DNA of 64,000 bases. It comes from Bacteroidales bacterium (GTDB taxonomy: Bacteria; Bacteroidota; Bacteroidia; Bacteroidales; WCHB1-69). The notes under the pieces are model-generated. The model made no database searches, was not told the origin of the DNA, and saw only the letters and a program-made list of their open reading frames with translations. Shown one piece after another: positions 9,704 through 47,898 of this stretch; position 1 is the first letter of the stretch; each line of letters opens with the position of its first letter. The position numbers were made by a program, and so were the translations under genes. The stretch spans positions 55,693 to 119,692 of the forward strand of contig JAEEKX010000022.1 of assembly GCA_016288655.1 (NCBI GenBank), given 5' to 3'.

Positions 9704-9732
9704 TTGGATTGCAGTTACAGGTAAAAGAAAAA

Positions 9733-9761: not shown

Positions 9762-9784
9762 GTAGTGGGGATCCTTCGTCTCTA

Positions 9785-17494: not shown

Positions 17495-17729
17495 TTTTCA
17501 TCGCACTCTCACTAATTTAAGCCACTGTGGAAACTCAAGGATACCTTGGGTTTGAGAGAAAAGATACTGCAACCGCATGGTGTCCGCATCCATCGTTACA
17601 TTAAAAACGGGGCCAATATACCCAAATATCGTGCTTCTAGCACGACGACAGTATATTTATTGCAACAGTAGTATTTTTACAATAAAACCACGACGGCTAC
17701 GTTATAATTATTTAAGAAAAATTGCAAGG

Positions 17730-21276: not shown

Positions 21277-23421
21277 ATGGAACCGATGAACTATGCAGCG
21301 GTCATCGCCAAGGAATTGGGCCTGCGGCTCAAGCAGGTCGAAAACGTGCTGGAGCTCCTCGAGTCGGGGGCGACGATTCCCTTCATCGCGCGCTACCGCA
21401 AGGAGGCCACCGACTCGCTCGACGAGGTGCAGATAGGCAACATCCGCGACCGGCACCTCAAGTTGGTGGAGTTGGACAAGCGGCGTGCCGCCATTCTTGA
21501 CTCCATCCGCGAGCAGGGCAAACTGACCGCCGAGTTGGAGGCACAGATCATGTCCGCCGACGCGATGGCGGTTTTGGAAGACCTGTATCTCCCCTACCGT
21601 CCGAAGCGCAAGACGCGGGCGTCGGTGGCGAAGGAGAAGGGGTTGGAGCCGCTGGCGGCCATCATCATGAGCCAGCGCGAGGAGAACCTGCTGCGCGTGG
21701 CGCGGGCGCATGTCAACCCCGCCAACGGCGTGGAGAGCGCCGACGACGCCCTCGCCGGCGCCCGCGACATCATTGCCGAGTGGGTCTCCGAGAACGCTTC
21801 CGTGCGCAACCGCCTCCGTCAGTTCTTCACCAAAGAGGCCGTCATCACTTCCAAGGTGGTGAAAGGCAAGGAGAAAGAGGGCGAGAAGTTCAGTTCCTAC
21901 TTCGACTTTTCGGAACGCATCTGCCGGTCGCAGTCGCATCGTCTGTTAGCCATGTTCCGTGGCGAAGAGGCCGGCTTCTTGCGGCTCTCCATCGAGCCGG
22001 CGGCAGAGCGCGTGCTGCCCGGACTGAAGAAGCACTTCGTGAAGAGCCGCAACGCCTGCGGCGAGCAGGTGGAACTGGCCGTCACCGACTCCTACAAACG
22101 CCTGCTGCAACCGCAGATGGAGACAGAGATGCGGCACATATTCAAGGAGAAGGCCGATGTGGAGGCCATCCGCGTCTTTGCCGAGAACCTGCGGCAGTTG
22201 CTGCTCGCACCGCCGCTCGGGCAGAAGATCGTGATGGCCATCGACCCGGGTTTCCGCACGGGCTGCAAGGTGGTTGTCCTGGATCGTCAGGGGCAACTGC
22301 TGCACAACGAGACCATCTACCCGCATCCGCCGAAAGCGGAGTACCGCCTTGCCAGCGACAAGTTGAAGCGCATGGTGGAGCAGTACAAGGTGGAAGCCAT
22401 CGCCATCGGCAACGGCACCGCCGGCCGCGAAACCGAGTATTTCGTCAGCAAGATCCCCTTCCCGCGCGACGTGCAGGTGGTGGTGGTCAGCGAAAGCGGC
22501 GCATCCATCTACTCCGCTTCGCAGGTGGCCCGCGACGAGTTCCCCGACTACGACGTCACCGTCCGCGGCGCCGTCAGCATCGGGCGTCGCCTGATGGATC
22601 CGTTGGCCGAGTTGGTGAAGATACCGCCGAAGTCCATCGGCGTGGGACAGTACCAACATGATGTCAACCAGACACTTCTGCAAGACAGTTTGAACTCCAC
22701 AGTGGAGAGTTGCGTCAACTATGTGGGGGTGGAAGTGAATACGGCGAGCAAGGAGTTGCTGGCCTACGTGTCGGGCGTCGGTCCGGCGCTGGCGGGCAAC
22801 ATCGTCGCCTATCGCAACCAGCACGGCCCCTTCTCCTCGCGCCGCGAACTCAACGACGTGCCCCGTTTCGGCGCCAAGGCATTCGAGCAGGCCGCCGGAT
22901 TCCTGCGCATTCACGGCGCCGCCAATCCGTTGGACGCCAGCGCCGTACACCCCGAGAACTACGCCGTCGTCGATCAGATGGCCCGCCGCTGCGGCTGCTC
23001 CGTCGCCGATCTCATGCACGACGCCGACAAGCGCAATGCCATCGTCCTTGACGACTACGTCTCCCCCACTGTCGGCCTGCCCACCTTGCGCGACATCATG
23101 CAGGAGTTGGCCAAACCCGGCCGCGACCCGCGCCCCCAGTTCGAAGTCTTCTCCTTCGACAAGTCCATCCGTACCATCAACGACCTTGCCGTCGGCATGG
23201 TGGTGCCGGGCATCATCACCAATATCACCAACTTCGGCTGCTTCGTCGATATTGGTGTACACCAAGACGGGCTCGTCCATGTCAAGGAGTTGTCTCACAA
23301 CCGCGTGGATCGACCGGGCGACGTGGTCAAACTGCATCAGAAAGTGTGGGTGCGCGTCACCGCGGTCGATCTCGACCGCAAACGCATCAGTTTATCCATG
23401 AAAGACGTCAGTCATTCCTAA
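21277..23421 (+). CDS. tex: Tex-like transcription accessory protein (YqgF/HHH/S1 domains)
   Basis: The conserved N-terminus IAKELGLRLKQVENVLELLESGATIPFIARYRKEATDSLDE follows the ATG at 21277. The C-terminal S1 domain is GMVVPGIITNITNFGCFVDIGVHQDGLVHVKEL. The start lies 1 nt after the EF-G stop. Confidence 0.9.
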   Translation: MEPMNYAAVIAKELGLRLKQVENVLELLESGATIPFIARYRKEATDSLDEVQIGNIRDRHLKLVELDKRRAAILDSIREQGKLTAELEAQIMSADAMAVLEDLYLPYRPKRKTRASVAKEKGLEPLAAIIMSQREENLLRVARAHVNPANGVESADDALAGARDIIAEWVSENASVRNRLRQFFTKEAVITSKVVKGKEKEGEKFSSYFDFSERICRSQSHRLLAMFRGEEAGFLRLSIEPAAERVLPGLKKHFVKSRNACGEQVELAVTDSYKRLLQPQMETEMRHIFKEKADVEAIRVFAENLRQLLLAPPLGQKIVMAIDPGFRTGCKVVVLDRQGQLLHNETIYPHPPKAEYRLASDKLKRMVEQYKVEAIAIGNGTAGRETEYFVSKIPFPRDVQVVVVSESGASIYSASQVARDEFPDYDVTVRGAVSIGRRLMDPLAELVKIPPKSIGVGQYQHDVNQTLLQDSLNSTVESCVNYVGVEVNTASKELLAYVSGVGPALAGNIVAYRNQHGPFSSRRELNDVPRFGAKAFEQAAGFLRIHGAANPLDASAVHPENYAVVDQMARRCGCSVADLMHDADKRNAIVLDDYVSPTVGLPTLRDIMQELAKPGRDPRPQFEVFSFDKSIRTINDLAVGMVVPGIITNITNFGCFVDIGVHQDGLVHVKELSHNRVDRPGDVVKLHQKVWVRVTAVDLDRKRISLSMKDVSHS

Positions 23422-23438
23422 ATCGATTTCTTACTACA

Positions 23439-25553
23439 ATGACTTCCAACTACTTACAGACAGCGATTGAATTTCTGCGGGGCGTCGGTCCCCAGCGTGC
23501 CAAGGTGTTGAAGGCCGAATTCAACATCTTCACATACCATGACTTGCTCTATTATTTTCCGTTCCGCCATGTGGATAAGGCGACGGTGTATCATATCCGT
23601 GACATCCAGACGGAGGGCAACTACATGCAGTTCCAAGGCGACATCACGGGCATTCAGATGCTGGGCGAAGGGCGCAGCCGGCGTTTGTCAGCGCAGTTTA
23701 CCGACGGCACCGGCACCATGGAACTCGTCTGGTTCAACGGCGTGCGTTGGATGGAGGAAATCGTGCGGAAAAACTGCCATAACGTGCTGATTTTCGGCAA
23801 GCCCACCATCTTCAACAACCGATGGAACATGACTCATCCCGAGATCATCGACCCCAACTCCAACAACGGCTCTTCTATCAAGCAGCACTTCTTCCCTCTA
23901 TACAACACTTCCGACAAGGCGAAGCGGGCGGGCTTGGATTCCAAAGCGGTGGCGAAACTCACGGCCACGCTGTTGCTGGATCTGCAGGGGCATCCCATTC
24001 CGGAAACGTTGCCTCAACCCTTGGTGGCGCAGCATCGGATGATGTCGCTTCAGGAGGCGCTTTTCAATATCCATTATCCTGAAAACCAGACCAAATTGGC
24101 TGCGGCCACCGTTCGACTGAAGTTCGACGAACTTTTCTATACTCAACTTAAAATGTTGAAACTCAAATTGTTGACAGAGCGTCGGTTCCGCGGGCACATC
24201 TTCTCGCGCGTCGGCGAGAGTTTCAACGAGTTTTACAACCACCATTTGAAATTTGAACTGACGGATGCACAGAAGCGGGTCATCAAAGAGATCCGGGCTG
24301 ACATGGGCAGCGGGCGGCAGATGAACCGGCTGCTGCAGGGCGACGTGGGTAGCGGCAAGACCATCACGGCACTGCTGGTGATGCTCATCGCCAACGACAA
24401 CGGCTTCCAGTCGTGCCTGATGGCGCCGACGGAGATCCTGGCGCAACAACATTACGCCAACATCTCGAAGCAGGTGGAGGGCATGGGGATCGGCGTCGCG
24501 CTGCTGACAGGTTCCACCAAGTCCGCCGAACGCAAGGTCATACACCAAGGCCTGCTCGACGGCAGCATTCGCATCCTCATCGGCACGCACGCGCTGATTG
24601 AGAACGAAGTGCAGTTCGAGAACCTCGGGTTGGCCGTCATCGACGAGCAGCACCGTTTCGGCGTGGAGCAACGCGCCAAGTTGTGGAAGAAGAACCGCAT
24701 CCCGCCGCACATCTTGGTGATGACGGCGACACCCATCCCGCGCACGCTCGCCATGACCGTCTATGGCGACCTCGACGTCTCCATCATCGACGAGCTGCCC
24801 AAAGGACGCAAGCCCATCATAACCAAGCATTTATATGAAAGAGACCGCAACCGTCTCTTCTACTTCCTGCGTCAGCAGGTGGATGCCGGAAGGCAGGTCT
24901 TTGTCGTCTATCCGTTGATTCAGGAGTCTGAAAAGATGGATTTGTTGGATCTGCAAGCGGGTTTCGATGCGATGTCGCGGTCGTTCCCGTTGCCGCGCTA
25001 CGCCGTGGGCATGGTGCATGGGAAGATGCCGAATGACGTGAAAGAGTATGAAATGCAACGGTTTAGCAAGGGCGAGACCAACATTCTTGTCTCCACTACG
25101 GTCATCGAGGTGGGTATCGACATTCCGAACGCCACGGTGATGGTGATCGAGAATGCGGAGCGGTTCGGACTGTCGCAGTTGCACCAGTTGCGCGGGCGCG
25201 TCGGGCGCGGCGGCGTGCAGTCGTACTGCATCCTCATGTCGGGCGAGAAGTTGAGCAGTGATGGCAAGCAGCGGCTTGACGCCATGGTGAGCACCACCGA
25301 CGGCTTCGAGATCGCCAATTTCGACCTGAAACTGCGCGGACCGGGCGACCTGCAGGGTACGCAACAGAGTGGCGTCCTCGACTTCAAAATAGCTGATATC
25401 GTGAAAGATGAGAAATTAGTCTCCTATACCCGCGAGTTGGCCCGACAGATCTTGGAAAAGGATCCCGACCTCACCCGTCCTGACAATAAAATCCTGTCCG
25501 AACAGTTGCAGGAACGGATGAAACAGGAGAAGTTCTGGGGAATGATCAGTTGA
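23439..25553 (+). CDS. recG: ATP-dependent DNA helicase RecG
   Basis: The start is the ATG at 23439 (MTSNYLQTAIEFLRGVGPQRAKVL). Helicase motifs present: LQGDVGSGKT, DEQHRFG, MTATPIPRTL, QLHQLRGRVGRG. Confidence 0.95.
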   Translation: MTSNYLQTAIEFLRGVGPQRAKVLKAEFNIFTYHDLLYYFPFRHVDKATVYHIRDIQTEGNYMQFQGDITGIQMLGEGRSRRLSAQFTDGTGTMELVWFNGVRWMEEIVRKNCHNVLIFGKPTIFNNRWNMTHPEIIDPNSNNGSSIKQHFFPLYNTSDKAKRAGLDSKAVAKLTATLLLDLQGHPIPETLPQPLVAQHRMMSLQEALFNIHYPENQTKLAAATVRLKFDELFYTQLKMLKLKLLTERRFRGHIFSRVGESFNEFYNHHLKFELTDAQKRVIKEIRADMGSGRQMNRLLQGDVGSGKTITALLVMLIANDNGFQSCLMAPTEILAQQHYANISKQVEGMGIGVALLTGSTKSAERKVIHQGLLDGSIRILIGTHALIENEVQFENLGLAVIDEQHRFGVEQRAKLWKKNRIPPHILVMTATPIPRTLAMTVYGDLDVSIIDELPKGRKPIITKHLYERDRNRLFYFLRQQVDAGRQVFVVYPLIQESEKMDLLDLQAGFDAMSRSFPLPRYAVGMVHGKMPNDVKEYEMQRFSKGETNILVSTTVIEVGIDIPNATVMVIENAERFGLSQLHQLRGRVGRGGVQSYCILMSGEKLSSDGKQRLDAMVSTTDGFEIANFDLKLRGPGDLQGTQQSGVLDFKIADIVKDEKLVSYTRELARQILEKDPDLTRPDNKILSEQLQERMKQEKFWGMIS

Positions 25554-25555
25554 TG

Positions 25556-26302
25556 CTATCCGCGGTCGTTGTTTTTCCGCAGCAGCGTGGCGTTATCCAC
25601 ATAATGTTGTAAATCATCCTTGTAGGTGTTGCTCACCGGAAGCAAGGTCCCATCCGACAGCACCACCTCCTGACGGCGCAGGTTGTCGATGGCATCCAAC
25701 GCGATGATGTAGGAACGGTGGATGCGCATGAAACGGTCTTTCGGCAACGAATCTGCCATCAACTTCACACTCATGAAGGTCATGATGCTGCGCCCGTCCT
25801 TGAAGTGAACCCGGATGTATTCGCTCATCGCCTCCACATACAAAATGGATTGAAACGGAACTTTAACGCTTTGGTTGTCGGCGCGTAAGAAAATAAAGTC
25901 GGCCGTTTGGGGCTGACTCGCCGTGCTTTTATTGTCTCCGCGCATCCATTCCAGATATTGGCGTGCCTTCATGGCGGATTTCAGGAAGGCGTCATAGCCA
26001 TACGGTTTAAGCAGGTAGTCGATGGCATCAATCTTGAAACTCTCCACCGCATACTCTTCGTATGCCGTACTGAAGACAACTAACGGCTTGTTTTGCAATG
26101 ATTTGACAAAATCAAGACCAGTGATGTCGGGCATGTTGATATCCGTGTACATCAGGTCAACAGGCTGCTTCAGCAGCAACTCTGCCGCGTCGGAGGCAGA
26201 AGAAAACGAGCCCACCAATTGCAGAAAAGGCGTTTTTTTGATATAACGTTCCAGCTGTCTCAAGGCAAGCGGTTCGTCATCGATGGCTACGCAGGTAATC
26301 AT
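25556..26302 (-). CDS. LytR/AlgR-family response regulator (receiver + LytTR DNA-binding domain)
   Basis: A 248-aa ORF. The receiver is VAIDDEPLALRQLERYI...DLMYTDINMPDITGLDF. The LytTR C-terminus is FIFLRADNQSVKVPFQSILYVEAMSEYIRVHF...FMRIHRSYIIALDAI. Confidence 0.9.
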   Translation of the reverse strand: MITCVAIDDEPLALRQLERYIKKTPFLQLVGSFSSASDAAELLLKQPVDLMYTDINMPDITGLDFVKSLQNKPLVVFSTAYEEYAVESFKIDAIDYLLKPYGYDAFLKSAMKARQYLEWMRGDNKSTASQPQTADFIFLRADNQSVKVPFQSILYVEAMSEYIRVHFKDGRSIMTFMSVKLMADSLPKDRFMRIHRSYIIALDAIDNLRRQEVVLSDGTLLPVSNTYKDDLQHYVDNATLLRKNNDRG

Positions 26303-27513
26303 ATTCTAGGAATATTTAATTCGGCATAATATTCTGTATCACTTTCTGTTACATGGTAATAATAGCGGTTCGGGTAGATCTGTTCCAAGCGTTTGAGCAG
26401 ACTATCAAGCCCATAGCCTGTCGATTGCACTTGTCGTTTGTTTATAGGCTTACTATTACGTATGGAACAGTAAATTGTTTCATTTTCAACATACAATTTG
26501 AGATGGACGAAGGATTCGTCCTGATAGGAGATGCCGTGTTTGAAGGCGTTTCCGGCTAAATTCAGGTAAAGCGCCGGAGCCACGCGGGCGGGTGGAAGCG
26601 GGTTTTGGATGTCGAATCGGATATCCACCTTATCGGTGAACCGCATGCGCATCAGGTCGAAATAGCACCGCAGCGACTCCACCTCCTTGTCCAACGTCAC
26701 CCATTCCGTATTGATTTCTTGATGGATGTACCGCATGATGTGCGACAGTAGCAGCACGGACTCCTGTGCTCGTTCCGTATCCTCGCCAATCAGTGCGTAG
26801 ATGTTGTTGAGGGTGTTCATCATAAAATGCGGGTTCAACTGCGATTTAAGCACTTGCAATTCAGTGACTTTAATCTCCTTTTCCATCATGGCCTTCTCCT
26901 TTTCCAACCGTGCCTTTTCGCGCTCCATGGAACGGCCATAGGAGATAAAGTGGATGGCTGAGAATTCAACCAGAGTGACAAAACAGAGCAGGAAATAGAA
27001 GATCCAACGGCGGAAGGGCAGGTCATGGTCGAATGTGGAGTTGTAATCCGACAGCAAGAATCGGGTGCGTGCTTTGCATGAGTCCACCACTTGCTCTCCA
27101 GTGTGATTCCTTTCATCAACAAGATGTTTCAAATAGTCGAATCCATCTTGGTTGTCGAAATAGATGACCGATTCCTGCAAGGCTGCATCCTCCTGTTCAG
27201 AATAGGATAGCGGCATCAACGGCCGGATCCAGATGCTCCACACCAGCGAGATGACGATGACAAATCCCACGGAACCAACGACATACTGATAGATCTTGCG
27301 ATTATGGACGAACCGCGGGAAAAACCAGAAAGCCAATGCCACGTATGTCAATATGATGGGCAGTGTCCGCGGCAATAGATTGACATCGAAGATGATGTGG
27401 CTGTCCGTGTAGTTGATGTCCAGACAGAGATACACCGCGACACTCAGCGTGAAGGCCAAACTGATAAGGTAGGTTGTAGATGATTCCCAAGCGGCTCTTA
27501 ACCTTTTTTTCAT
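26299..27513 (-). CDS. LytS/YehU-type sensor histidine kinase (multi-TM sensor, His_kinase + HATPase_c)
   Basis: A 404-aa ORF with several N-terminal TM helices. The phosphoacceptor region is LKSQLNPHFMMNTLNNIYALI and the ATPase block is NAFKHG. There is a 4-nt overlap with the genes on both sides. Confidence 0.85.
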   Translation of the reverse strand: MKKRLRAAWESSTTYLISLAFTLSVAVYLCLDINYTDSHIIFDVNLLPRTLPIILTYVALAFWFFPRFVHNRKIYQYVVGSVGFVIVISLVWSIWIRPLMPLSYSEQEDAALQESVIYFDNQDGFDYLKHLVDERNHTGEQVVDSCKARTRFLLSDYNSTFDHDLPFRRWIFYFLLCFVTLVEFSAIHFISYGRSMEREKARLEKEKAMMEKEIKVTELQVLKSQLNPHFMMNTLNNIYALIGEDTERAQESVLLLSHIMRYIHQEINTEWVTLDKEVESLRCYFDLMRMRFTDKVDIRFDIQNPLPPARVAPALYLNLAGNAFKHGISYQDESFVHLKLYVENETIYCSIRNSKPINKRQVQSTGYGLDSLLKRLEQIYPNRYYYHVTESDTEYYAELNIPRI

Positions 27514-28193
27514 TTGTGCTTGAATCCGTATTTAAAACCAATATAATAAACGTTTTCCGGTTTGGCGACCTGCATTTCGTTGTCCGCGCGGAAGAATACG
27601 CCGATGGTGCTCCCCGCATTCAGCCGGTAATCCCAGCCCACGATGGTGCGGAAGCGATCGACAATGTTGGCGTCTTTTTTGTAAAGTCGCAGGAAAAATT
27701 CGGTGGAGGCATACAGTGTCATCGGGTGGGCGGGAAAGACGTACTCCAACTGCAGACGCCCGCGCAGGTAGGTCTTGGGGTTGAACTTGACATGCCGCCG
27801 CTGCTCATCGTAAAATGTGGATTGAATCCGCAATCGGAAGGATGGCTTGAACTGCCGGATCCGCTCCGTGTAGGTGATGGATCCGAGCACGCGCCCGCGA
27901 TTTTCGGGCGTTCCTTCCTGATTGTAAAGAAGATAACGGCCACCGACGCTGACCTTGAAGCGTTTGTCCCAAAAGGAGTAACTCAAGTCGGCACTCAACT
28001 TTAAACGGTTGAAATTGGTAAAACATTGATTGAATCGGCCTTCCGCGCCGATGCCGAAGTTCAGCCCCTTTACAATCCGTTGTTCGAAACCCACCTCCAA
28101 CAGTCCGCCAAAATCATGCGTCTGCGACGATACGAAAGCGGGCGCACAGAGCAGGATCATCCATAAAAAGGCGGCTAAACGTTTCAATTTCAA
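27510..28193 (-). CDS. DUF2490-family predicted outer-membrane beta-barrel protein
   Basis: A 227-aa ORF with a signal peptide (FLWMILLCAPAFVSSQ). It has an alternating amphipathic beta-strand pattern and a terminal aromatic region (YYIGFKYGFKHK). The similarity to DUF2490 is recalled, not searched. Confidence 0.65.
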   Translation of the reverse strand: MKLKRLAAFLWMILLCAPAFVSSQTHDFGGLLEVGFEQRIVKGLNFGIGAEGRFNQCFTNFNRLKLSADLSYSFWDKRFKVSVGGRYLLYNQEGTPENRGRVLGSITYTERIRQFKPSFRLRIQSTFYDEQRRHVKFNPKTYLRGRLQLEYVFPAHPMTLYASTEFFLRLYKKDANIVDRFRTIVGWDYRLNAGSTIGVFFRADNEMQVAKPENVYYIGFKYGFKHK

Positions 28194-28198
28194 TAGTT

Positions 28199-28942
28199 TT
28201 ATTTCATAAACTCCTTGTGCTTCACCAAGGTGTCGATGGTGTTGGGTTCGTCGGAAATCGGCTCGTAGTGGATCTTCACGTAGGCCACATCCCGCAGAAA
28301 GTCGATATGACCGACTTCTATACGATTGATTTTCAAACCAGTTCGCTCTTCCAAATCGGCTTTCAACTCCGCCTCCCTACCATGCTTGATCAACTCGATC
28401 TTGTCGTAAAGAATAATCTTGGCAGGTTTCTGCCTCGCGCCGAAGAGTCCATCAACCACAGCGATGACGATAATAAACAACAGATTGATAATCAAGAGAT
28501 TGATATAACCATGCGACATGGCCAAGCCGTTGATGACGGCCACGCCGATGGTGACGAACAGGTAGGTCATTTCCCGTATCGGTACCGTTTCCGTGCGGTA
28601 TCGGATCATGCCGAAGATGGCGAAGAGACCGAGGGCGAAGCCCATGCCGAGGTTCACGTTGTTGAGCAGGAACATCAGCAGGAACACCGTCACACTGAAC
28701 AGCATGAAGGTGTAGTAATAGTCTTTGCGCTTGCTTTTTCTATAATAGAAGAAGTGGACAATGATCCAGCAAACCAACAAGTTAAACAGGAAGAGGATGC
28801 CTAACGACAACAGACTATCCTTTTGGATGAGAGGGATGCCTAAGATGTCGTTGGCGGAGGCGATCTCCTGGAGATCCGATGAAAATTCGCGGGCGATTTC
28901 GGGATCGAACTGTTCCGCTTGGAGTAAAAGATGACTCAACAT
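28199..28942 (-). CDS. DUF4956-family multi-pass membrane protein
   Basis: A 247-aa ORF with 4-5 TM helices. The conserved-looking block FAIFGMIRYRTETVPIREMTYLF is followed by a soluble C-terminal domain. It overlaps the upstream VTC gene by 7 nt, the usual partner arrangement. Confidence 0.7.
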   Translation of the reverse strand: MLSHLLLQAEQFDPEIAREFSSDLQEIASANDILGIPLIQKDSLLSLGILFLFNLLVCWIIVHFFYYRKSKRKDYYYTFMLFSVTVFLLMFLLNNVNLGMGFALGLFAIFGMIRYRTETVPIREMTYLFVTIGVAVINGLAMSHGYINLLIINLLFIIVIAVVDGLFGARQKPAKIILYDKIELIKHGREAELKADLEERTGLKINRIEVGHIDFLRDVAYVKIHYEPISDEPNTIDTLVKHKEFMK

Positions 28943-29733
28943 TCGTTCATGTTTTTAATGGATGACTGATCTGATTTCAAAAACTCGATATAACGCAGTT
29001 TCTTCTTGAAACGGTTGTATTTGACGTCGGGGTTGGTGAGTATGGTGCCGAGGCAGTATTTGCTGATGCGGTAGGGTCGGATCCGCAGGTCGCGCAGCAG
29101 GCGTTTGAAGAACGACGGGATGTTGCCGTCCTGTTTCAGTTCGATGATGACGAGGTGTGGCACTTCGGCGTTTTTTTCGGTGTGGCGGTTGCGGAAGCGG
29201 ATGTTCATGTCGATGGTGAGGCGCTCGCTCTTCCCACGGTTGACGAGGGTGATGCGGTCGAACTCGTTCTCTACCTGCGGCACGAGCGTATTTACGTCGT
29301 AATTCAGGCGTTCGACGACGAATCGGCGCGGCTCGTCGAATTCCAGCATCCGCCCGAACTGGCTTACTTCGATGCCGATGCGTTTCTTCTTGGTACGCTT
29401 CTTGTTGGTCTTGTTCTTGATTTCGCAGAAGGCGGTGTCGGTGTCGCAGTAGATGCGGGCGCGCAGTTTCTGACGGGTGAGTTTCTGGTTGTGGTGGGCG
29501 ATGTACATCTGCGCGTCCGGCGTATCGTAATACAGCGTGTTGTAGTGGGCGATGCGGCGGCCGACATTCTCCTGCACGAAATAGCCGTCGGTGAGGTAAG
29601 CGAGGATTTCGGGCAGCCGGTCCTGGGAAACGAGGTATTTCGAGTCGATGCGGTTCATCAACTTCACCGCACTCATCTCCTCCAAGGTGATGGGTGCGAA
29701 GTGGGTCAGTACCTGCTCGACCGAATCGTTCAT
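28936..29733 (-). CDS. VTC-domain (polyphosphate-polymerase-like, triphosphate tunnel metalloenzyme fold) protein
   Basis: A 265-aa ORF with alternating charged tunnel strands: NRIDSKYLV, YNTLYYDTPD, KLRARIY, FCEIKNK, RITLVN, ERLTIDMNIRF, VIIELKQ. Confidence 0.72.
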   Translation of the reverse strand: MNDSVEQVLTHFAPITLEEMSAVKLMNRIDSKYLVSQDRLPEILAYLTDGYFVQENVGRRIAHYNTLYYDTPDAQMYIAHHNQKLTRQKLRARIYCDTDTAFCEIKNKTNKKRTKKKRIGIEVSQFGRMLEFDEPRRFVVERLNYDVNTLVPQVENEFDRITLVNRGKSERLTIDMNIRFRNRHTEKNAEVPHLVIIELKQDGNIPSFFKRLLRDLRIRPYRISKYCLGTILTNPDVKYNRFKKKLRYIEFLKSDQSSIKNMNEC

Positions 29734-29741
29734 CGTTGGAA

Positions 29742-30155
29742 TTAATTGGAAAAGATGTACTCGAACTCCTTGGACGACTCCAACTTGCCGGATGGCAGGT
29801 AGTTGTACTGCTTTTTCTTGCTGCCGTCGGGATAGTACTCGAACTTGCGGATGCGCACGGGCTTGTTGCGGTTGTCATAGACCACCTGCCTGACGCACCG
29901 TCCATTGTCGTCGTACTCGTAGGTCACACGCGATTTCTGCCCGTAGTTGGCATATTCGACCTCCTCGACCTTGTAACCGTCGGCGTTGTATTTGGTCTCG
30001 TGGTCGAGATAGCGGGTGTTGGCGCCGGCGGGGGTGTTCCACTCCTTGATGGTCAGGTTCTTGCGCTTCTCACGCTTTTCGGACGCGCTTTGCGCACTCA
30101 ACAGGGAGGCCGAGAAGAGCGCCACAAGGAGACATAGGAGTACTCGTTTGTTCAT
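29742..30155 (-). CDS. Small secreted protein with short Tyr/Asp/Gly repeats (function unknown)
   Basis: A 137-aa ORF with a signal peptide (LLCLLVALFSASLLSAQS). The sequence is repetitive: YNADGYKVEEVEY / YEYDDNGRCVRQVVY / FEYYPDGSKKKQYNY. It is in-operon, with gaps of 8 and 10 nt. Confidence 0.5.
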   Translation of the reverse strand: MNKRVLLCLLVALFSASLLSAQSASEKREKRKNLTIKEWNTPAGANTRYLDHETKYNADGYKVEEVEYANYGQKSRVTYEYDDNGRCVRQVVYDNRNKPVRIRKFEYYPDGSKKKQYNYLPSGKLESSKEFEYIFSN

Positions 30156-30165
30156 TCCTTAAAAA

Positions 30166-30876
30166 TTAGACATTAATGGTAACGGTGAAAAGATCGACAT
30201 CGTATATCTGTCCGGCTTCGCTCACAGTGACGTATTGGGAGACGATGGAGGGGACCTCGTTGGTGTCTTCGGTGATGGTGAAGACCTCGTATTCACCCGG
30301 CTCGAGCTGTTGGAAGTAGTAGTAGCCGTCGTAGCCGACGCGCACGTCGTCGAAGTGGTAGGGCTCGCCCACGCGGCGGATATAGACGCGGTGCTCGTAG
30401 GCCCAACCGCTGCCACGGCTGCTGCCGTTGTGGATGTAGTTGGCCCACACCTGCCCGCGCACGAGCGAGGTGCCGTAGGCCTTCCCTTCGTGGATGTAGA
30501 TGGTGGGCACGCTCACGGTGCTGCCGGCAGGGAGTTCCACGGTCTCCGACACGGCGATCTTCTCACCCGATGGCAACACGGAGTATGCGAAGATGGTGTA
30601 GGTGCCCTTCTTCAGGTACTTGAAACGGTAGGTTCCGTCGGCGCCGGTCTCCATGTCGTCGCCGTACATCACGTCGTCACCATAGACGATAAAGACATCG
30701 ACCTTTGCTCCGACGATGGTATCGGCAGTAAGGTTGTAGTTGTCATTGTCGTGGACGACGACCATGATCTTGCCTTCGATGACGCCGGAGCCGCCCTCGC
30801 CTTCCCCCTTGCTGCAACCGAGCAGCAGAAAGGCCACCGCGCACACCCACATCATCATTCCCAATATTTTTTTCAT
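30166..30876 (-). CDS. Lipoprotein with two carboxypeptidase-regulatory-like (Ig-like beta-sandwich) modules
   Basis: A 236-aa ORF with a lipobox (LLLGC). Two blocks of the type G.V......ADGTYRF.YL..GTY.I and DGYYYFQQLEPGEYEV are typical of CarboxypepD_reg-like folds. Confidence 0.55.
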   Translation of the reverse strand: MKKILGMMMWVCAVAFLLLGCSKGEGEGGSGVIEGKIMVVVHDNDNYNLTADTIVGAKVDVFIVYGDDVMYGDDMETGADGTYRFKYLKKGTYTIFAYSVLPSGEKIAVSETVELPAGSTVSVPTIYIHEGKAYGTSLVRGQVWANYIHNGSSRGSGWAYEHRVYIRRVGEPYHFDDVRVGYDGYYYFQQLEPGEYEVFTITEDTNEVPSIVSQYVTVSEAGQIYDVDLFTVTINV

Positions 30877-30968
30877 AAAAAGAGTATCTATAAGATGATA
30901 AACGCAAAACTCACAACTCTATTACCTTTTCCCCTCAATCTTTAATCTTTAATTTCTAAACCTTGAAC

Positions 30969-33734
30969 CTATTGAGCGGTTACGGAAGTCCCGTTGCCGG
31001 AGGTCGTAGCGCTGGCGCCGATGTATAGCCCGTGCCAGTTGGCTGTGCCGTTGATGGTGGGGTTGGTGTAGAGGGTGTAGGTGCCCGAGGTGATGCTGGG
31101 GCTGGTGAAAACAAAACTGGCGCTGCTGCTGCCACCGCCTCCGGGAGGTCTGAGTCCGGGGGTGGAGGACATGAACCCGCTGCCGGAGATGGAGGCGGGA
31201 TGGCTGTAGATCATGACGGGCGTGGAGGCGCTGTTCTTGATGCAGTAGGAGCTGCCGCCGGTGATGGTGGGTGCGAGGTACTTCTGCCCGTTCTGGTAGG
31301 TGGGGTTGTCGAGCAGGGCCATGCCGCCGGGACCGCCGCCGCCACCACTGGAGGCGCGGTAGGCGATGATGGTGGCGCCGTTGATGATCAGGTGGCCTTG
31401 GGTGCCGCCCATGCCGTCGGTGTTGGCGTCGATGGCCTCTTCTGTGCCGGCCACGATGACCACGCCGCCGTTGTAGTAGGAGTAGGCGCCGTTGCAGTCG
31501 ATGCCGTCGTTGCCGCGGGCATAAGCCCACACATAGCCGCCGTTGACTTCGAGGTGGTTGGCGGCGTTGATGGCGTCGTCGTAAGAGTTGGCCTCCACAA
31601 AGCCGCCGTTGATGTAGATGCCGTTCTTGCTCTCGATGGCCTCGCCAGTCGGGTCTCCGGAGGTCTGCGAGCAGTAGGAGGAGACGTGACCGCTGTTGAT
31701 GACGAGGTTGCCCATGGCCTTGATTCCCTTGGGGTTGCAGTAGGTGGTGCTGCTGCCCCAGCCGCCCCAGCCGCCGCCACCGCCGCTGATGGGTGCTCCG
31801 GAGGTGTGGATGTCGATGTCGATGAGGTCGTTGTCGGCTCCCTGAGCCCCGATGGTGAAGACACCATCGACCTTGATGCCGCGGCCGCCTGTGCCGGTGC
31901 TCTCGCAGTTGAAGGTGCCGCCGAGGATGTTGAGATTTCCGTCGGTCTTGAGGCAGACGGGACCGTAGCCGTCGGTGGTGTTGCTGCTGTTGGTGTAAGT
32001 GGTGCCGCTGCCAGCCGTCGTCAGGGCGAAAGTGCCGCCGTTGATGGTGGCCACGCCCGTGGCGGAAATACAACGCCCCCCGGTGTTGGCGTTGGTGCAG
32101 TTGATGGTGAAGTCGCCGTTGTCAATGGTGAGCGTGCCATCGGCCTTGATGCCGCTGCAGTAGGACGGGTCGCCGCTGGTGACCACGGTGCTGCCGGAGG
32201 CGGTGATGTGGAAGGCGCCGCCGGCGATCAGCATGGCGGTGCCGGACTTGATGCCCTTGCTGGTGTTGCCGGAAGCGGTGACGGTGATGTCGCCGCCGTT
32301 GACGGTGAGGGTGTTGTCGGCGGTCATGCCCTTGCTGTCGGCGCCGGAGGCGGTGACATGTAGGGTGCCGTCGTTGACGGTCACAGCCACGTCGGCGGAA
32401 AAGCCCTTGCTGTCGGTGCCGGAGGCGGTGAGGGTGATGTCGCCGCCGTTGACGACGATGCTGCCGTTGGTCTTGACGCAGGCGGCGGAGTAGGAGTCGC
32501 TCTGGTTGCTGGCGTTGGTGTAGGTGCCACCGGCGCCAGCCACGGAGAGGACGAGGGTGCCGCCGTGGATGGTGACGTCGCCGTCGGCGTTGATGGCCTT
32601 GCCGCCCTGCGCCGCGCTGCTCATGGTGATGTTGATGCTCGTGGATCCGGTGACGGCATCGATGTCGATGGGGCCATCGCACTTCAAGCCGGCGCTGTGG
32701 GAGGCGTCGCCGCTGACGACCTGGGTGGCGCCGGAACCGTTGATGGTGATGTCGCCGCCCTCGATCACGATGGCGTAGGCCGACTTCATGCCCTTGCTGT
32801 AGGCGCCCGTGAGCGTGAGGTTGATGTCGCCGCCGGTGATGTAAATGATGCTGTCGCACTTCATCGCTTTTCCGTCGGCCGCGGAGATGTCAATGTCGAT
32901 GCTGCCGCCGGCGACTTCGATGAAGCCGCGGTCGCCGTCGATGCCGGTGGCGGCGTTGCTGATCGTTACTCTGCCGGTGTACATCTGGAAGTAGTCGGCG
33001 TGCAGGCCGTCGGTAACGGCGCTGGGCACCACGATGTTGCCGCTCAGAACGCGGATGTAGTCGTTGCTGAAGATGGCGTGCTTGACGGTGCCGGTGGCGG
33101 TGAGGGTGCCGTTGCCGGAAAAGATGATCTGTCCCTCGCTGTCGAAGGCCGCCTTGTGGGTGGTGGCGTCGCCGCCATCGACCAACGTGCTGCTGTTCTC
33201 CAACGTCACGGAGACCTTCACGTCGTCAATCACCTTGATGGCCGCCCCCGTCGGGTTGGTGATGCTCACCCCGTGCATGATAAGGTTGAAACGGTGGTCG
33301 CTGTTCATGATGAGCGAGCCGTCGCTGGTGCTGCCGGCCAGATAGTAAATGATGTCCTGCGTGCCCGACTGCGCATTCACGGTGACGTCGGCGCCGTTGG
33401 CGGTCACCGTCACTCCGCGGTTCGCCCACGGGTTGATGATGTTGACGCTGTTGCCGTTATAGGTGATGTAAATGATCTCACCGGTGTCGATCTCGACGGA
33501 CTCGGAACTGAAGACGATGCTGTCAATGCCCACTACCGGGAACATGAAATCGGGTTCCCCAATATTATTATGTAGTATGGAGATGTTGTTCTGGAAACAT
33601 ACGCTGTCGATCTGGTCGATCAACTGGGTGTGGACAGGATTGCTGCCGTTGTAGTATATGATACGCTGCTCCTGCGCGGAAGCGAAACCGCAGAGGATGA
33701 AAATGGTGATAAGGGTAGTCAACAACTTCTTCAT
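30969..33734 (-). CDS. Secreted Cthe_2159-family carbohydrate-binding beta-helix protein (large, internally duplicated)
   Basis: A 921-aa ORF with a signal peptide. The N-terminal block is ITYNGNSVNIINPWANRGVTVTANGADVTVNA..IIYYLAGSTSDGSLIMNSDHRFNLIMHGVSITNPTGAAIKV. Many coils of the type GGDITxTASGxxSKGxK follow, matching my recollection of Cthe_2159-type proteins. Confidence 0.72.
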   Translation of the reverse strand: MKKLLTTLITIFILCGFASAQEQRIIYYNGSNPVHTQLIDQIDSVCFQNNISILHNNIGEPDFMFPVVGIDSIVFSSESVEIDTGEIIYITYNGNSVNIINPWANRGVTVTANGADVTVNAQSGTQDIIYYLAGSTSDGSLIMNSDHRFNLIMHGVSITNPTGAAIKVIDDVKVSVTLENSSTLVDGGDATTHKAAFDSEGQIIFSGNGTLTATGTVKHAIFSNDYIRVLSGNIVVPSAVTDGLHADYFQMYTGRVTISNAATGIDGDRGFIEVAGGSIDIDISAADGKAMKCDSIIYITGGDINLTLTGAYSKGMKSAYAIVIEGGDITINGSGATQVVSGDASHSAGLKCDGPIDIDAVTGSTSINITMSSAAQGGKAINADGDVTIHGGTLVLSVAGAGGTYTNASNQSDSYSAACVKTNGSIVVNGGDITLTASGTDSKGFSADVAVTVNDGTLHVTASGADSKGMTADNTLTVNGGDITVTASGNTSKGIKSGTAMLIAGGAFHITASGSTVVTSGDPSYCSGIKADGTLTIDNGDFTINCTNANTGGRCISATGVATINGGTFALTTAGSGTTYTNSSNTTDGYGPVCLKTDGNLNILGGTFNCESTGTGGRGIKVDGVFTIGAQGADNDLIDIDIHTSGAPISGGGGGWGGWGSSTTYCNPKGIKAMGNLVINSGHVSSYCSQTSGDPTGEAIESKNGIYINGGFVEANSYDDAINAANHLEVNGGYVWAYARGNDGIDCNGAYSYYNGGVVIVAGTEEAIDANTDGMGGTQGHLIINGATIIAYRASSGGGGGPGGMALLDNPTYQNGQKYLAPTITGGSSYCIKNSASTPVMIYSHPASISGSGFMSSTPGLRPPGGGGSSSASFVFTSPSITSGTYTLYTNPTINGTANWHGLYIGASATTSGNGTSVTAQ

Positions 33735-33737
33735 GGC

Positions 33738-34235
33738 TTAGAATTTTGAGAATTTGTATGTCTGTTCATTGACACGGATGACGTACATGCCGCGCGGCAA
33801 GTTGCTGACATCCAGACTCTCCGACGTGCTCAACTGCTGTTGTTGCAGCAACTGGCCGTTGAGGGTGAAGACCGACACCTGCACGTTCTGCTCGACATTG
33901 GTGGCGAAGTAGAGGTGGTCGGAAGTGGGGTTCGGGTAGATGAGGATGGCGTTGTCACCCCAATCGGACGTGCCGCCGATGACGGTGCTCACGGCATCCA
34001 ATTCCAGCCGACGGATGGTCGAGACCGGCACGGAGGTGACCACGCCCGCCTGATCCAGCATCAGGTTGTCGCCCGAAAAGTAGAATTTCGTGACATTTTC
34101 AAAGTCTGACGGCGACTGGTTGTTGTTGTAAACCACAGTCACATCGGTTGTCTGCACAATGGTTTGCGACCATAACGATGTGGCCGGAATCCAGAACAGA
34201 AGAGCAAGGATAAGAAGTTTTTTCAGTTGATACAT
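33738..34235 (-). CDS. Small secreted protein consisting of a short N-domain plus a T9SS C-terminal sorting domain
   Basis: A 165-aa ORF with a signal peptide. The C-terminus is ILIYPNPTSDHLYF...VSVFTLNGQLL....LDVSNLPRGMYVIRVNEQTYKFSKF. It is the first gene of the operon. Confidence 0.7.
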   Translation of the reverse strand: MYQLKKLLILALLFWIPATSLWSQTIVQTTDVTVVYNNNQSPSDFENVTKFYFSGDNLMLDQAGVVTSVPVSTIRRLELDAVSTVIGGTSDWGDNAILIYPNPTSDHLYFATNVEQNVQVSVFTLNGQLLQQQQLSTSESLDVSNLPRGMYVIRVNEQTYKFSKF

Positions 34236-34261: not shown

Positions 34262-34269
34262 CAAAAATA
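34262..34269 (-). promoter_or_regulatory. -7 promoter element (TATTTTTG) heading the 34.2->25.6 kb operon
   Basis: The plus strand reads caaaaata, 27 nt upstream of the ATG at 34235. Confidence 0.45.
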
Positions 34270-34368: not shown

Positions 34369-34376
34369 TAATTTTG
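34369..34376 (+). promoter_or_regulatory. -7 promoter element (TAATTTTG) for rnr
   Basis: An exact TAnnTTTG match 20 nt upstream of the ATG at 34396. Confidence 0.45.
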
Positions 34377-34395: not shown

Positions 34396-36522
34396 ATGGA
34401 AAACATTGAAAACAGAATTATACAAGTACTGTCGTCAGGCAATGAGAAGTTGAATTACAAGCAGATAGCGGCAAAGATCAACATCTATGACAAGCAGGGG
34501 CGTGAGGAAGTGAAGCGCGTGATCGGGAAATTCGTGAAGGCGAAGATCCTGCTGACGGTGGGGCGCGGCAAGTACCGGCTCAACCACAAATACATGAACA
34601 AGGAGACCACGGGGCGCAACTACGTCACTGGGCGGCTGGAAGTGAAGTACAGCGGTTCGGCGTGGGTGCTGCAAGAGGGCGACGACGAGGACATCTTCAT
34701 CGCCGAGCGCAACCTCAGCAATGCCTTGCACGGCGACTTGGTGAAGGTGATGCTCTTCCCGCCCCGCGAGGACCGCAGGCCTGAGGGCGAGGTGGTGCAA
34801 GTGCTCGAACGCAGCCAGCAGCAACTCGTCGGCATCATCCGCATCGACAAAGGCATCGCCTTTTTCATCCCCGACAGCAACAACTTCCGTCGTGACGTCC
34901 TCATCCCGGGGCGGCTGCTGCGCAAGGCCAAGAATGGCTACAAGGTGGTGGTGAAGATCGTGGATTGGACGCCCGGCAGCAAGAACCCCATCGGCGAGGT
35001 GGTGAACGTGCTCGGCAAGCCCGGCGACAACGACGTCGAGATGCTGTCGATCTTGGCGGAGAGCAATTTCCCGGTCAGCTTTCCCAAGGAGGTGGAGCAG
35101 GAGGCGGAGGCCATCGTCGCCCTCAGCGGCGCCGAGGCGCTGAAGGGACGCCGCGACTTCCGCAAGGTGACCACCTTCACCATCGACCCCGCCGACGCCA
35201 AGGACTTCGACGACGCCCTCTCCTATGAGCGCCTGCCCAACGGCCACCATCGCATCGGCGTCCACATCGCCGACGTCTCCTACTACGTGCGCCCCGGCTC
35301 CGCCATCGACCGCGAGGCCTACGACCGCGGCACCTCCGTATATCTCGTTGACCGCACCATTCCCATGCTGCCCGAAGCCCTTTCCAACAACCTCTGCTCG
35401 CTGCGTCCCCACGAGGACAAACTCTGCTTCAGCGCCGTTTTCGAACTCGACGACGATGCCAAGGTGGTGCGCGAATGGTTCGGCCATACGGTCATCAACT
35501 CCGACGAGCGCTTCGACTACGGACAGGTGCAGAAGATCATCGACGACGGCAAAGGCCGCCTTTCCGACGAAATCAACACCATCAACGGATTAGCCCGTAT
35601 CATGCGCAAACGCCGTTTCGAGAACAACGCCATCAACTTCGAGACAGAAGAGGTCAAGTTCGAACTCGACGAGAACGCCAAGCCCATCGGCGTCTATCTC
35701 AAGGTGGCCACGGAAGCCAACTTCATGATCGAGGAGTTCATGCTGCTGGCCAACAAGCGGGTGGCCGAGAAGATCGGCAAGCGCACCAGCGCCAACAAAG
35801 AGCCCAAGACCTTCGTCTATCGTATCCACGACAAGCCGTTGGAAGAGAAATTGTTGACATTCAAGAACTTCGTCAAGAAAATCGGGTACGACTTCAAGGT
35901 CGGATCTCCCAAGACGGTCTCCAGTTCCTTCAACGGGCTGTTCCGCCAGGCACAGGGAAAGAAAGAGTTCGACATGCTTTGCAAACTCTCCATCCGCACG
36001 ATGGCGCGTGCCGTCTATTCCACCGAAAACATCGGCCACTACGGACTCGCCTTCCCCTTTTACACTCACTTTACCTCCCCTATCCGCCGCTATCCCGACC
36101 TGATGGTGCACCGTCTGCTCGACCGTTATTTAGCGAAGGGCGAGTCGGTGCCCGCCGACCAGTACGAGGAGTTCTGCAACCACTGTTCACAGATGGAGCA
36201 GAAGGCCACCGAAGCCGAGCGCAACAGCGTGAAATACAAGCAGGCAGAATACCTGGAGGACCAGATCGGCAAGACCTTCGACGCCACCGTCAGCGGCATC
36301 TGCAAGTGGGGCATCTTCGCCGAACTCAAGGATTCGAAGTGCGAAGGGCTTATCGCCATGCGCAAGTTCAACGACGACTTCTACTACATCGACGAGGAGA
36401 ACTACACGCTCGTCGGACTGCACGGCGGCAAGTCGTACCGCTTCGGCGACGACATCAAAGTGCGGGTGGCTTCCGTGGATCTGCTGCGCCGCCAGATGGA
36501 TTTCGACATCGTAGAGGAGTAG
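34396..36522 (+). CDS. rnr: ribonuclease R
   Basis: A 708-aa ORF. The RNB catalytic domain is TIDPADAKDFDDALS...HIADVSYYV...RGTSVYLVDRTIPMLP...YGLAFPFYTHFTSPIRRYPDLMVHR. A C-terminal S1 domain is present. Confidence 0.95.
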   Translation: MENIENRIIQVLSSGNEKLNYKQIAAKINIYDKQGREEVKRVIGKFVKAKILLTVGRGKYRLNHKYMNKETTGRNYVTGRLEVKYSGSAWVLQEGDDEDIFIAERNLSNALHGDLVKVMLFPPREDRRPEGEVVQVLERSQQQLVGIIRIDKGIAFFIPDSNNFRRDVLIPGRLLRKAKNGYKVVVKIVDWTPGSKNPIGEVVNVLGKPGDNDVEMLSILAESNFPVSFPKEVEQEAEAIVALSGAEALKGRRDFRKVTTFTIDPADAKDFDDALSYERLPNGHHRIGVHIADVSYYVRPGSAIDREAYDRGTSVYLVDRTIPMLPEALSNNLCSLRPHEDKLCFSAVFELDDDAKVVREWFGHTVINSDERFDYGQVQKIIDDGKGRLSDEINTINGLARIMRKRRFENNAINFETEEVKFELDENAKPIGVYLKVATEANFMIEEFMLLANKRVAEKIGKRTSANKEPKTFVYRIHDKPLEEKLLTFKNFVKKIGYDFKVGSPKTVSSSFNGLFRQAQGKKEFDMLCKLSIRTMARAVYSTENIGHYGLAFPFYTHFTSPIRRYPDLMVHRLLDRYLAKGESVPADQYEEFCNHCSQMEQKATEAERNSVKYKQAEYLEDQIGKTFDATVSGICKWGIFAELKDSKCEGLIAMRKFNDDFYYIDEENYTLVGLHGGKSYRFGDDIKVRVASVDLLRRQMDFDIVEE

Positions 36523-43485: not shown

Positions 43486-43517
43486 AAATAACAGGTTCAG
43501 ATATGGTTGTGAAATTC

Positions 43518-47850: not shown

Positions 47851-47898
47851 ATTAAAATGATTTTGATGATTAATTCGAAAAAAAGATTTTTTAGCCGC

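Follow-up and report, generated by a model that had tools for sequence, protein, structure and literature searches.

A Vtc4-like tunnel enzyme paired with the membrane protein DUF4956 in Bacteroidales: a putative polyphosphate synthesis and export module

We propose a model for a nine-gene envelope operon that lies in a 64,000-nucleotide (nt) stretch of contig JAEEKX010000022.1 (the window), from an uncultured gut or rumen Bacteroidales bacterium known only from metagenome-assembled genomes. At the centre of the operon is a 265-amino acid (aa) protein which, on family and fold evidence, is a Vtc4-type triphosphate tunnel metalloenzyme (TTM), and its gene is overlapped by that of an inner-membrane protein of the DUF4956 family. 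As judged from sequence, the locus joins this enzyme to a membrane and envelope apparatus different from that of the yeast VTC complex. The best explanation that we can offer is a bacterial counterpart of the VTC polymerase/translocase, extended across the diderm envelope, that would carry out vectorial synthesis and export of polyphosphate (polyP); we hold this explanation tentatively and place it a little short of probable.

The operon and its candidate promoter read as follows, in the direction of transcription:

34262-34269, minus strand: TATTTTTG, a TAnnTTTG match (Bacteroidota -7 type motif), 27 nt 5′ of the first ATG
33738-34235, minus strand: protein with a C-terminal sorting domain (CTD) of the type IX secretion system (T9SS), 165 aa (Por_Secre_tail)
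30969-33734, minus strand: Cthe_2159 beta-helix protein, 921 aa (Pfam Cthe_2159)
30166-30876 (alternative start 30852), minus strand: acidic lipoprotein, 236 aa (lipobox LLGC, Cys21)
29742-30155, minus strand: YD/Rhs-type repeat protein, 137 aa, predicted to be exported (weak YD_repeat similarity)
28936-29733, minus strand: VTC-family TTM enzyme, 265 aa, predicted to be cytoplasmic (Pfam VTC, AlphaFold2, Foldseek)
28199-28942, minus strand: DUF4956 inner-membrane protein, 247 aa (Pfam DUF4956)
27510-28193 (alternative start 28160), minus strand: DUF2490 putative outer-membrane barrel, 227 aa (Pfam DUF2490)
26299-27513, minus strand: membrane sensor histidine kinase (PF06580), 404 aa (Pfam His_kinase)
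25556-26302, minus strand: LytTR response regulator, 248 aa (Response_reg and LytTR)

The VTC protein is a tunnel enzyme

The 265-aa protein matches the Pfam family VTC (PF09359) over profile positions 1-231 of 235 at 110.3 bits (cut-off 23; E=1.4e-31); VTC is its only Pfam domain, and it has neither a signal peptide nor a hydrophobic segment. An AlphaFold2 model built with 52 homologues (pLDDT 94.4, pTM 0.90) was compared with the Protein Data Bank (PDB) by Foldseek, and the best 13 matches are all tunnel domains of yeast Vtc4, Vtc3 or Vtc2 (E 2.9e-13 to 9e-11, TM-score 0.56-0.65), with TTMs of the hydrolase type, such as E. coli ygiF, CYTH proteins and AtTTM3, ranking lower (6e-9 and weaker). 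As far as family membership and modelled fold can tell, this is a true VTC/TTM tunnel enzyme with a closed beta-tunnel of eight strands.

The residues of the tunnel lead to the same assignment. In an alignment that spans five phyla, with sequences from Bacteroidales, Deinococcus, Alphaproteobacteria, Enterococcus and Streptomyces, 20 positions are invariant and nearly all of them are Arg, Lys, Glu, Asp or Tyr (R28, Y68, D70, K89, R91, R93, Y95, E104, K106, K116, R118, R160, E170, R171, T173, D175, E198, K200, K225 and Y226). A profile of this alignment aligns to Vtc4 in the PDB at E=5e-5; it alone reached Vtc4, which neither a single-sequence nor a Bacteroidales-only profile recovered from the PDB sequences. 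The profile alignment equates R28 with R196 of Vtc4, K32 with K200, R91 with R264, R93 with R266, E104 with E279, K106 with K281, K116 with K294, R118 with R296, R160 with R361 and R171 with R373, and K32, R91, R93, K106, K116, R160 and R171 are invariant or nearly so across the five phyla. The earlier note on this stretch had staked its proposal on the VTC identity of the protein and on conserved Arg, Lys and Glu residues in its tunnel, and both are found here, because the profile map shows the Vtc4 tunnel residues to be conserved. With a profile built from the C-terminal half, the E426/K458 region of Vtc4 stayed unaligned; for this region, strand order suggests that the invariant E198 and K225 correspond to E426 and K458, and that the invariant E198-x-K200 represents the E-x-K form seen in Vtc4 rather than E-x-E.

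According to Martinez et al. (PMC4641920), the chain leaves Vtc4 along four basic residues that guide it, at positions where the hydrolase TTMs carry four Glu. By profile alignment the first position of this acidic patch is R28 in the bacterial proteins, an Arg as in Vtc4, and the basic residues R118 and K200 are candidates for positions 3 and 4, which fall outside the computed mapping. The sequence of the VTC protein does not by itself settle polymerase against hydrolase, and we refer to the enzyme as a putative polyphosphate polymerase.

DUF4956 is paired with the enzyme across phyla

The gene that overlaps the VTC stop by 7 nt, an arrangement that indicates translational coupling of the tunnel enzyme to its five-helix neighbour, encodes a 247-aa protein matching DUF4956 (PF16316) over the whole profile (positions 1-169 of 169; 183.2 bits, cut-off 30.6; E=4.3e-54). 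Five transmembrane helices are predicted between residues 41 and 167, followed by a C-terminal alpha/beta domain (174-226). With basic loops at 66-72, 113-124 and 168-175, the positive-inside rule suggests an N-out/C-in topology, in which case the invariant RYRTE...REMTY loop and the soluble domain would face the cytoplasm. Invariant residues of DUF4956 include R114, R116 and R123.

Scanning one genome per species gave more than 565 relatives; the best 80, all from Bacteroidales and with 48-73% identity, were examined by searching six-frame open reading frames (ORFs) with the nine window proteins. VTC and DUF4956 are paired in 78 of these 80 loci. Furthermore, the two genes overlap or abut, in either order, in Bacteroidales, Lactobacillales, Deinococcus, Alphaproteobacteria and Streptomyces, so that the tight coupling pointed out in the earlier note extends to at least five phyla, and the DUF4956 family comprises 1,950 clusters at 50% identity (E<=1e-3). 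The reversed order, DUF4956 then VTC with a 23-nt overlap, is found on plasmids of Aminobacter and Shinella (8409-10721 and 7397-9723, respectively), and there the next gene is annotated as an ‘esterase-like activity of phytase family protein’, a link to phosphorus metabolism.

Apparent fusions in the databases were mostly set aside. An entry joining DUF4956 to CotH contains an internal lipobox and those joining DUF4956 to DUF2490 contain an internal signal peptide, which identifies them as adjacent genes merged by gene calling; the lone VTC-DUF4956 fusion is possibly an artefact of the same kind and was left out of the topology inference. Such library entries (P0428, P0375, P0480, P0459) are useful for adjacency and misleading for fusion. 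On a Pseudoalteromonas plasmid (8812-10492) the neighbours of DUF4956 are a lamin-tail-domain protein on one side and a porin on the other.

A signalling or otherwise non-polymer role, with the enzyme acting as a nucleotide cyclase or small-molecule triphosphatase and DUF4956 as an anchor or sensor, appears very improbable to us. The TTM superfamily does contain adenylate cyclases and thiamine and RNA triphosphatases, which stand lower among the fold matches, and the conserved C-terminal soluble domain of DUF4956 is of a small alpha/beta regulatory type; however, membership of the VTC family is strong and the CYTH-type matches are much weaker, and such a role would leave unexplained the constant exported basic envelope proteins and the barrel that accompany the pair in diderms only.

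A five-gene core with an add-on and a variable regulator

The extent of the unit around this pair was assessed at the 56 loci that could be evaluated, those with at least 5 kb on both sides. VTC and DUF4956 are present in all 56, the 137-aa repeat protein in 54, DUF2490 in 51, the lipoprotein in 46, Cthe_2159 in 18, and the kinase and the LytTR regulator in 6 each. The commonest layout, seen in 26/56, is a five-gene core alone (lipoprotein, repeat protein, VTC, DUF4956 and DUF2490), the full nine-gene order occurs in five, and in the set of 80 the flanks beyond core, add-on and regulator genes hold unrelated housekeeping genes. The operon is thus a composite in which the five-gene core is joined by an add-on (beta-helix and T9SS protein) and by a regulator specific to the lineage. 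This revises the earlier note, which had treated all nine genes as one evolutionary unit and the lipoprotein and the 137-aa protein as minor parts, when both belong to the core. Of the joint conservation of neighbours on which it had made its idea depend, the linkage of DUF2490 to VTC and DUF4956 is borne out, and Cthe_2159 and the kinase/LytTR pair are kept at the minority of loci given above. The nine-gene arrangement itself is not a chance juxtaposition: at least 22 independent metagenomic contigs from this species repeat the order, and it is also found in 5 further species of Bacteroidales.

A composite of this kind could also be read as three separately evolving units that happen to be adjacent, namely a T9SS/beta-helix pair for glycan binding, the five-gene core, and a LytTR system with an unrelated regulon of its own. 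The prevalence of the core-alone layout and the low counts for Cthe_2159 and for the kinase/LytTR pair favour it, as does the gap of 92-116 nt ahead of the lipoprotein gene, which could hold an internal promoter and contains a one-mismatch TAnnTTTG. We nevertheless think this unlikely, since Cthe_2159 meets VTC-DUF4956 in three arrangements and two phyla, the DUF2490 stop and the kinase start share a 4-nt overlap with no terminator found between the units, and a dedicated regulator nearly always adjoins the VTC core, though its family varies (in place of the two-component pair, a MarR gene directly upstream in 33/80 Bacteroidales loci, a divergent AraC gene in 17/80).

The three arrangements include that of Segatella copri, where a Cthe_2159 lipoprotein is encoded downstream of DUF2490 and not upstream of the core, and that of the Lactobacillales, reached through a distant VTC gene on an Enterococcus faecalis plasmid. 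Each of the four genera looked up there (Enterococcus, as E. mundtii, Aerococcus, Vagococcus and Holzapfeliella) has the order VTC-DUF4956-Cthe_2159 with an OmpR-type response regulator and a HisKA kinase adjoining, and the Cthe_2159 proteins carry lipoboxes and would thereby be anchored outside the membrane. The link between the pair, Cthe_2159 and a two-component system thus recurs independently of Bacteroidales, and it is the strongest support for the idea put forward in the earlier note.

In Deinococcus and on the E. faecalis plasmid, CotH stands in the place of Cthe_2159 beside VTC-DUF4956. This raises the alternative that the exported chain would serve as a phosphoryl or energy donor outside the cytoplasm, where there is no ATP, for a CotH kinase or for the lyase-like Cthe_2159 beta-helix in the phosphorylation or remodelling of envelope glycans or proteins. 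Beyond this replacement, one database entry has a CotH lipoprotein directly after DUF4956, genes for CotH, a polyP polymerase, DUF4956 and DUF4832 lie beside pel operons (10.1101/768473), and the Cthe_2159 partners of Lactobacillales are predicted membrane-anchored lipoproteins. Against it, CotH was found neither among the scanned ORFs of the window nor as a recurrent neighbour in the 80 Bacteroidales loci, a polyP-dependent activity is known for neither CotH nor Cthe_2159, and Cthe_2159, going by the summary in 10.1101/401869, is described solely as carbohydrate-binding, with catalysis not demonstrated. We regard a donor role as improbable.

The envelope components and their charge

In Bacteroidales, which are diderm, the lipoprotein, the repeat protein and DUF2490 accompany VTC-DUF4956 at the frequencies given above, and all three are absent from five monoderm Lactobacillales loci. 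The 227-aa protein matches DUF2490 (PF10677) at 71 bits (cut-off 29.8; E=1.4e-19), begins with a signal-like hydrophobic segment and has an isoelectric point (pI) of 10.0. DUF2490 is a putative porin family (TC 1.B.81; PMC4827864), and we take the barrel assignment from that source and from 10.64898/2026.07.29.741452. The 137-aa protein appears to be built of YD/Rhs-type beta-hairpin repeats, with weak matches to YD_repeat and DUF2963 and to an Rhs core in the PDB (E=0.004), and has a pI of 9.3. The 236-aa lipoprotein reaches CarboxypepD_reg (PF13620) at 29.0 bits (1.4e-6), below the cut-off of 32.3, with comparable sub-threshold matches to SdrD_B and SpaA, so the safest label for it is a generic prealbumin-like beta-sandwich; the PDB holds no sequence relative of it that we could find.

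These proteins fall into two groups by charge, and their orthologues do the same. VTC is basic in 80/80 orthologues (median pI 9.6), the repeat protein in 99% (median pI 9.3) and DUF2490 in 67/67 (median pI 9.6, pI 8.9-10.2), and the beta-helix, lipoprotein and T9SS protein are acidic, with orthologue pI values of about 4.6-4.8. Typical porins are acidic. The basic outer-membrane barrel predicted here is unusual in this respect and fits the passage of anions.

The 921-aa protein matches Cthe_2159 (PF14262) in six stretches (202 bits; E=1.3e-59), has a signal peptide, Gly-rich linkers and a pI of 4.5, and its orthologues are likewise acidic in 27/27 examined. Several long ORFs of 245-443 aa overlap its gene, some of them in different frames and some on the opposite strand (30949-33575); these are by-products of G+C-rich repetitive coding and not genes. 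The 165-aa protein has a signal peptide, an N-terminal domain of about 75 aa without a recognised fold and a type A T9SS C-terminal sorting domain (TIGR04183, 54.4 bits, cut-off 23; PF18962, 54.3 bits, cut-off 27; Por_Secre_tail 1.7e-14). At related loci its gene appears together with the Cthe_2159 gene of the upstream type. No significant similarity was seen for the small protein and the N-terminus of the beta-helix.

Two further observations touch these proteins. A 529-aa ORF at 17577-19166 (plus strand), which adjoins an EF-G-like gene, has no Pfam match at 1e-5, and its counterpart on an identical contig bears only a faint Beta_helix (PF13229) mark; it is a possible second beta-helix protein about 6 kb from the operon. 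Three more T9SS cargo proteins with Por_Secre_tail are encoded in the window, all on the minus strand (13248-15368, 41155-43527 and 44452-47961), the kinds being a streptopain-like peptidase of family C10 that has an Inhibitor_I69 prodomain, a protein resembling PNGase F that carries an F5/8 type C domain, and a 1169-aa C25 gingipain-like peptidase. From its gene content the organism clearly has an active T9SS secretome.

Proposed model and its weight

In our model the VTC tunnel enzyme would build a phosphoanhydride chain, polyP, from nucleoside triphosphate at the inner face of the membrane and pass it into a DUF4956 oligomer, with the membrane potential (outside positive) favouring export of the polyanion. 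The basic periplasmic repeat protein and the basic barrel would then conduct the chain through the periplasm and the outer membrane. The acidic Cthe_2159 beta-helix and the T9SS protein are likely to act as an extracytoplasmic acceptor or as a cation-bridged binder of the product, and the His_kinase/LytTR pair probably sets expression. Generalised, the model would amount to a third, hitherto unrecognised bacterial route to polyP besides PPK1 and PPK2, with a Vtc4-like polymerase seated on DUF4956 extruding the chain and, in Bacteroidales, delivering it through a basic barrel to the surface; in this wider form we consider the proposal doubtful.

Several observations weigh against the export model. 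On the side of the enzyme, the second position of the acidic patch is D30, which is Asp or Glu in all the bacterial sequences, as in hydrolases, and is Thr in Vtc4. When TTMs were tested side by side polyP was made by Vtc4 only (PMC4641920), and the bacterial TTMs that have been characterised are for the most part hydrolases or cyclases; the literature that we searched reports no activity, product or direction of transport for any VTC protein of bacteria. On the side of the membrane partner, the AlphaFold2 model of DUF4956 is of moderate confidence (pLDDT 69), its best PDB match by fold is to unrelated proteins (E=0.5) and by profile there is none; DUF4956 as a diverged channel of the Vtc1 type is thus supported by neither fold nor sequence searches. 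Moreover tblastn finds no VTC gene on the Pseudoalteromonas plasmid that bears DUF4956, so DUF4956 may act with other partners as well. At the outer end, a surface location of the 921-aa protein, as envisaged in the earlier note, is unsupported, since Pfam/NCBIfam and segment scans recognise neither a T9SS domain nor a lipobox on it. Both the beta-helix and the lipoprotein are strongly acidic and could not bind a polyanion directly; for the beta-helix this rules out direct holding of the product, and the polyanion binding proposed earlier would be feasible only through bridging divalent cations. The earlier interpretation is thus supported in part: the enzyme, the pairing, the barrel linkage and the recurrence of Cthe_2159 with a two-component system stand, and the nine-gene evolutionary unit does not.

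The same components can be read in the opposite direction, as inward scavenging, in which the barrel would admit short-chain polyP or another phosphoanhydride, DUF4956 would import it, the enzyme would be a (tri)polyphosphatase that frees phosphate and the beta-helix would capture the substrate at the surface. The bacterial and plant TTMs that have been characterised are tripolyphosphatases (PMC4641920), D30 retains one residue of the hydrolase patch, a phytase-like esterase sits in the alphaproteobacterial operons, a basic barrel is equally suited to anion uptake, and there is a report of growth on exogenous polyP through routes that are unknown (PMC13318637). However, by sequence family and by fold the enzyme is nearer to Vtc4, Vtc3 and Vtc2 than to any hydrolase TTM, and the first acidic-patch position is Arg, as in Vtc4. 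Import of a polyanion against the membrane potential would furthermore need an energy source, and none is encoded; periplasmic binding protein, ABC and Pst-like components are unlinked in the 80 loci. These points make scavenging, in our estimate, an explanation of low probability.

Relation to known systems

The export model finds its closest comparison in the yeast and protist VTC complex (3G3Q, 7YTJ, 8I6V), with which the bacterial enzyme has the Pfam family and the tunnel fold in common, and of whose residues R196, K200, R264, R266, K281, K294, R361 and R373 it keeps the equivalents. In that complex the enzyme is obligatorily membrane-paired with a cytosol-to-noncytosolic topology, and an equivalent arrangement is predicted here. 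In contrast to the yeast enzyme, the one described here has no SPX domain and no transmembrane region of its own; its partner, with five helices and a soluble domain, is unrelated in sequence and fold to the Vtc1-type subunits with their three helices; additional components sit in the periplasm and outer membrane; and control would be transcriptional, through two-component, MarR or AraC regulators.

In Gram-positive bacteria, genes for CotH, a polyP polymerase, DUF4956 and DUF4832 flank the pel operons of streptococci, clostridia and bifidobacteria, with no function given (Whitfield et al., 10.1101/768473), and a VTC-‘tubulin’-CotH cluster lies in the NELoc-2 pathogenicity locus of C. perfringens (PMC2879425). 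These pel accessory genes resemble our locus in the VTC-DUF4956 pair, in a variable extracytoplasmic partner and in an envelope or exopolysaccharide context. They differ in that the operon described here lacks CotH, DUF4832 and pel, has a Cthe_2159 beta-helix as partner, and adds the diderm-specific lipoprotein, YD-repeat protein and DUF2490 barrel. The synthase-dependent secretion systems (Bcs, Alg, Pel and PNAG) are alike in their inner-membrane polymerisation and translocation, periplasmic or lipoprotein parts, outer-membrane barrel and local regulator, but the present operon has no glycosyltransferase, c-di-GMP receptor or TPR scaffold, and with a TTM enzyme as putative polymerase its product is predicted to be inorganic, unlike theirs. 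OprP/OprO of Pseudomonas and the small barrels of the KdgM/NanC type are anion-specific outer-membrane channels. These are small basic-rich barrels suited to phosphate, pyrophosphate or acidic oligomers, and DUF2490 resembles them in its excess of basic residues, although without a detectable sequence relationship.

The founding Cthe_2159 of Clostridium thermocellum is a lyase-like beta-helix that, going by the summary in 10.1101/401869, is reported to bind cellulose and polygalacturonic acid. The 921-aa protein is about 3x longer than this, with six matched stretches, and lies inside a VTC operon; the recurrent linkage of Cthe_2159 to VTC-DUF4956 suggests that its ligand or role differs from the binding of plant cell walls.

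Textbooks and current reviews of polyP treat VTC as eukaryotic only and assign to bacteria only PPK1 and PPK2 (PMC10657179, PMC13318637). In the literature that we searched there is no experimental or functional study of a bacterial VTC-DUF4956 module, in agreement with the earlier note, and no description either of the five-gene Bacteroidales core with its basic barrel or of the partnership of VTC-DUF4956 with Cthe_2159 across two phyla; the names ‘polyphosphate polymerase domain-containing’ and ‘DUF4956’ are already in use in databases. What is defined here is a widespread and unstudied bacterial family in which a membrane protein and exported partners come firmly tied to a Vtc4-like enzyme. 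If the export model is true, it would account for the way in which polyP comes to lie outside the bacterial cytoplasm, point to one origin for the polyP that gut and rumen bacteria may have in the periplasm, at the surface or in secreted form, and provide a functional context for Cthe_2159, the CotH-linked operons, DUF4956 and DUF2490. Coupled polymerisation and translocation could then be studied in a simple system of two proteins, and the eukaryotic VTC complex would have either its ancestor or a parallel solution in the prokaryotic VTC-DUF4956 pair. Cultivable carriers include Segatella copri, Bacteroides thetaiotaomicron (BT3498-99 region) and Enterococcus mundtii.

Gene order, transcription and regulation

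All nine minus-strand ORFs described in the earlier note are present, and the junctions computed from their coordinates, in 5′ to 3′ order, are the same as it gave (+3, +92, +10, +8, -7, +5, -4 and -4 nt). Two of these depend on the choice of start codon: in the gene calls on identical metagenomic contigs the lipoprotein starts 8 codons later, for a gap of 116 nt, and DUF2490 starts 11 codons later, for a gap of 38 nt. As the earlier note had also observed, the final stop of the operon lies 2 nt from that of the convergent recG (23346-25553). Its domain calls are reproduced by Pfam and NCBIfam, with the reservations that CarboxypepD_reg is sub-threshold and that LytS can stand only as a broad label.

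The element TATTTTTG is, as previously claimed, the sole TAnnTTTG on the minus strand between 25.5 and 34.4 kb. Across the whole window the motif shows no enrichment (20 matches against 15 expected), and matches to promoters of the sigma-70 type are uninformative for Bacteroidota. No convincing terminator was found in the intergenic gaps of the operon. Judging from this layout the nine genes are probably co-transcribed from a promoter at about 34265, with possibly a weaker internal start in the 92-nt gap.

The kinase matches His_kinase (PF06580) at 3.6e-24 and has four predicted transmembrane segments; this family is typical of LytS/YehU sensors, and the LytS sensor domain 5TMR_LYT is not among its Pfam matches. 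The regulator combines Response_reg (4.2e-18) with LytTR (2.5e-19) and scores below the cut-off of both the BtsR model (117.8 bits, cut-off 246) and the LytR equivalog model. By domain content the two are a LytS-type pair in the broad sense only.

Upstream, a 160-nt AT-rich region separates the operon from a divergent RNase R gene (34396-36522) and carries one TAnnTTTG in each direction (34369-34376 on the plus strand, 34262-34269 on the minus strand), so that it looks like a compact divergent promoter region. The G+C content is 0.49-0.51 over the kinase, DUF2490, DUF4956 and VTC genes (26000-30000) and 0.60-0.61 over the beta-helix gene (30000-34000) and the flanks; the richness of the beta-helix in Gly, Ala and Thr may account for this step, as may a mosaic origin of the operon modules.

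Other features of the window

The nine operon proteins gave zero matches to PADLOC defence families, and neither Rfam families nor tRNAs were found in the window. A 476-aa ORF at 37211-38641 (plus strand) contains sigma-70 regions 2 and 4 at about residues 118-275, flanked by N- and C-terminal stretches without a domain assignment; its counterpart on an identical contig is called at 352 aa, and the N-terminal stretch may therefore be a start-codon artefact.

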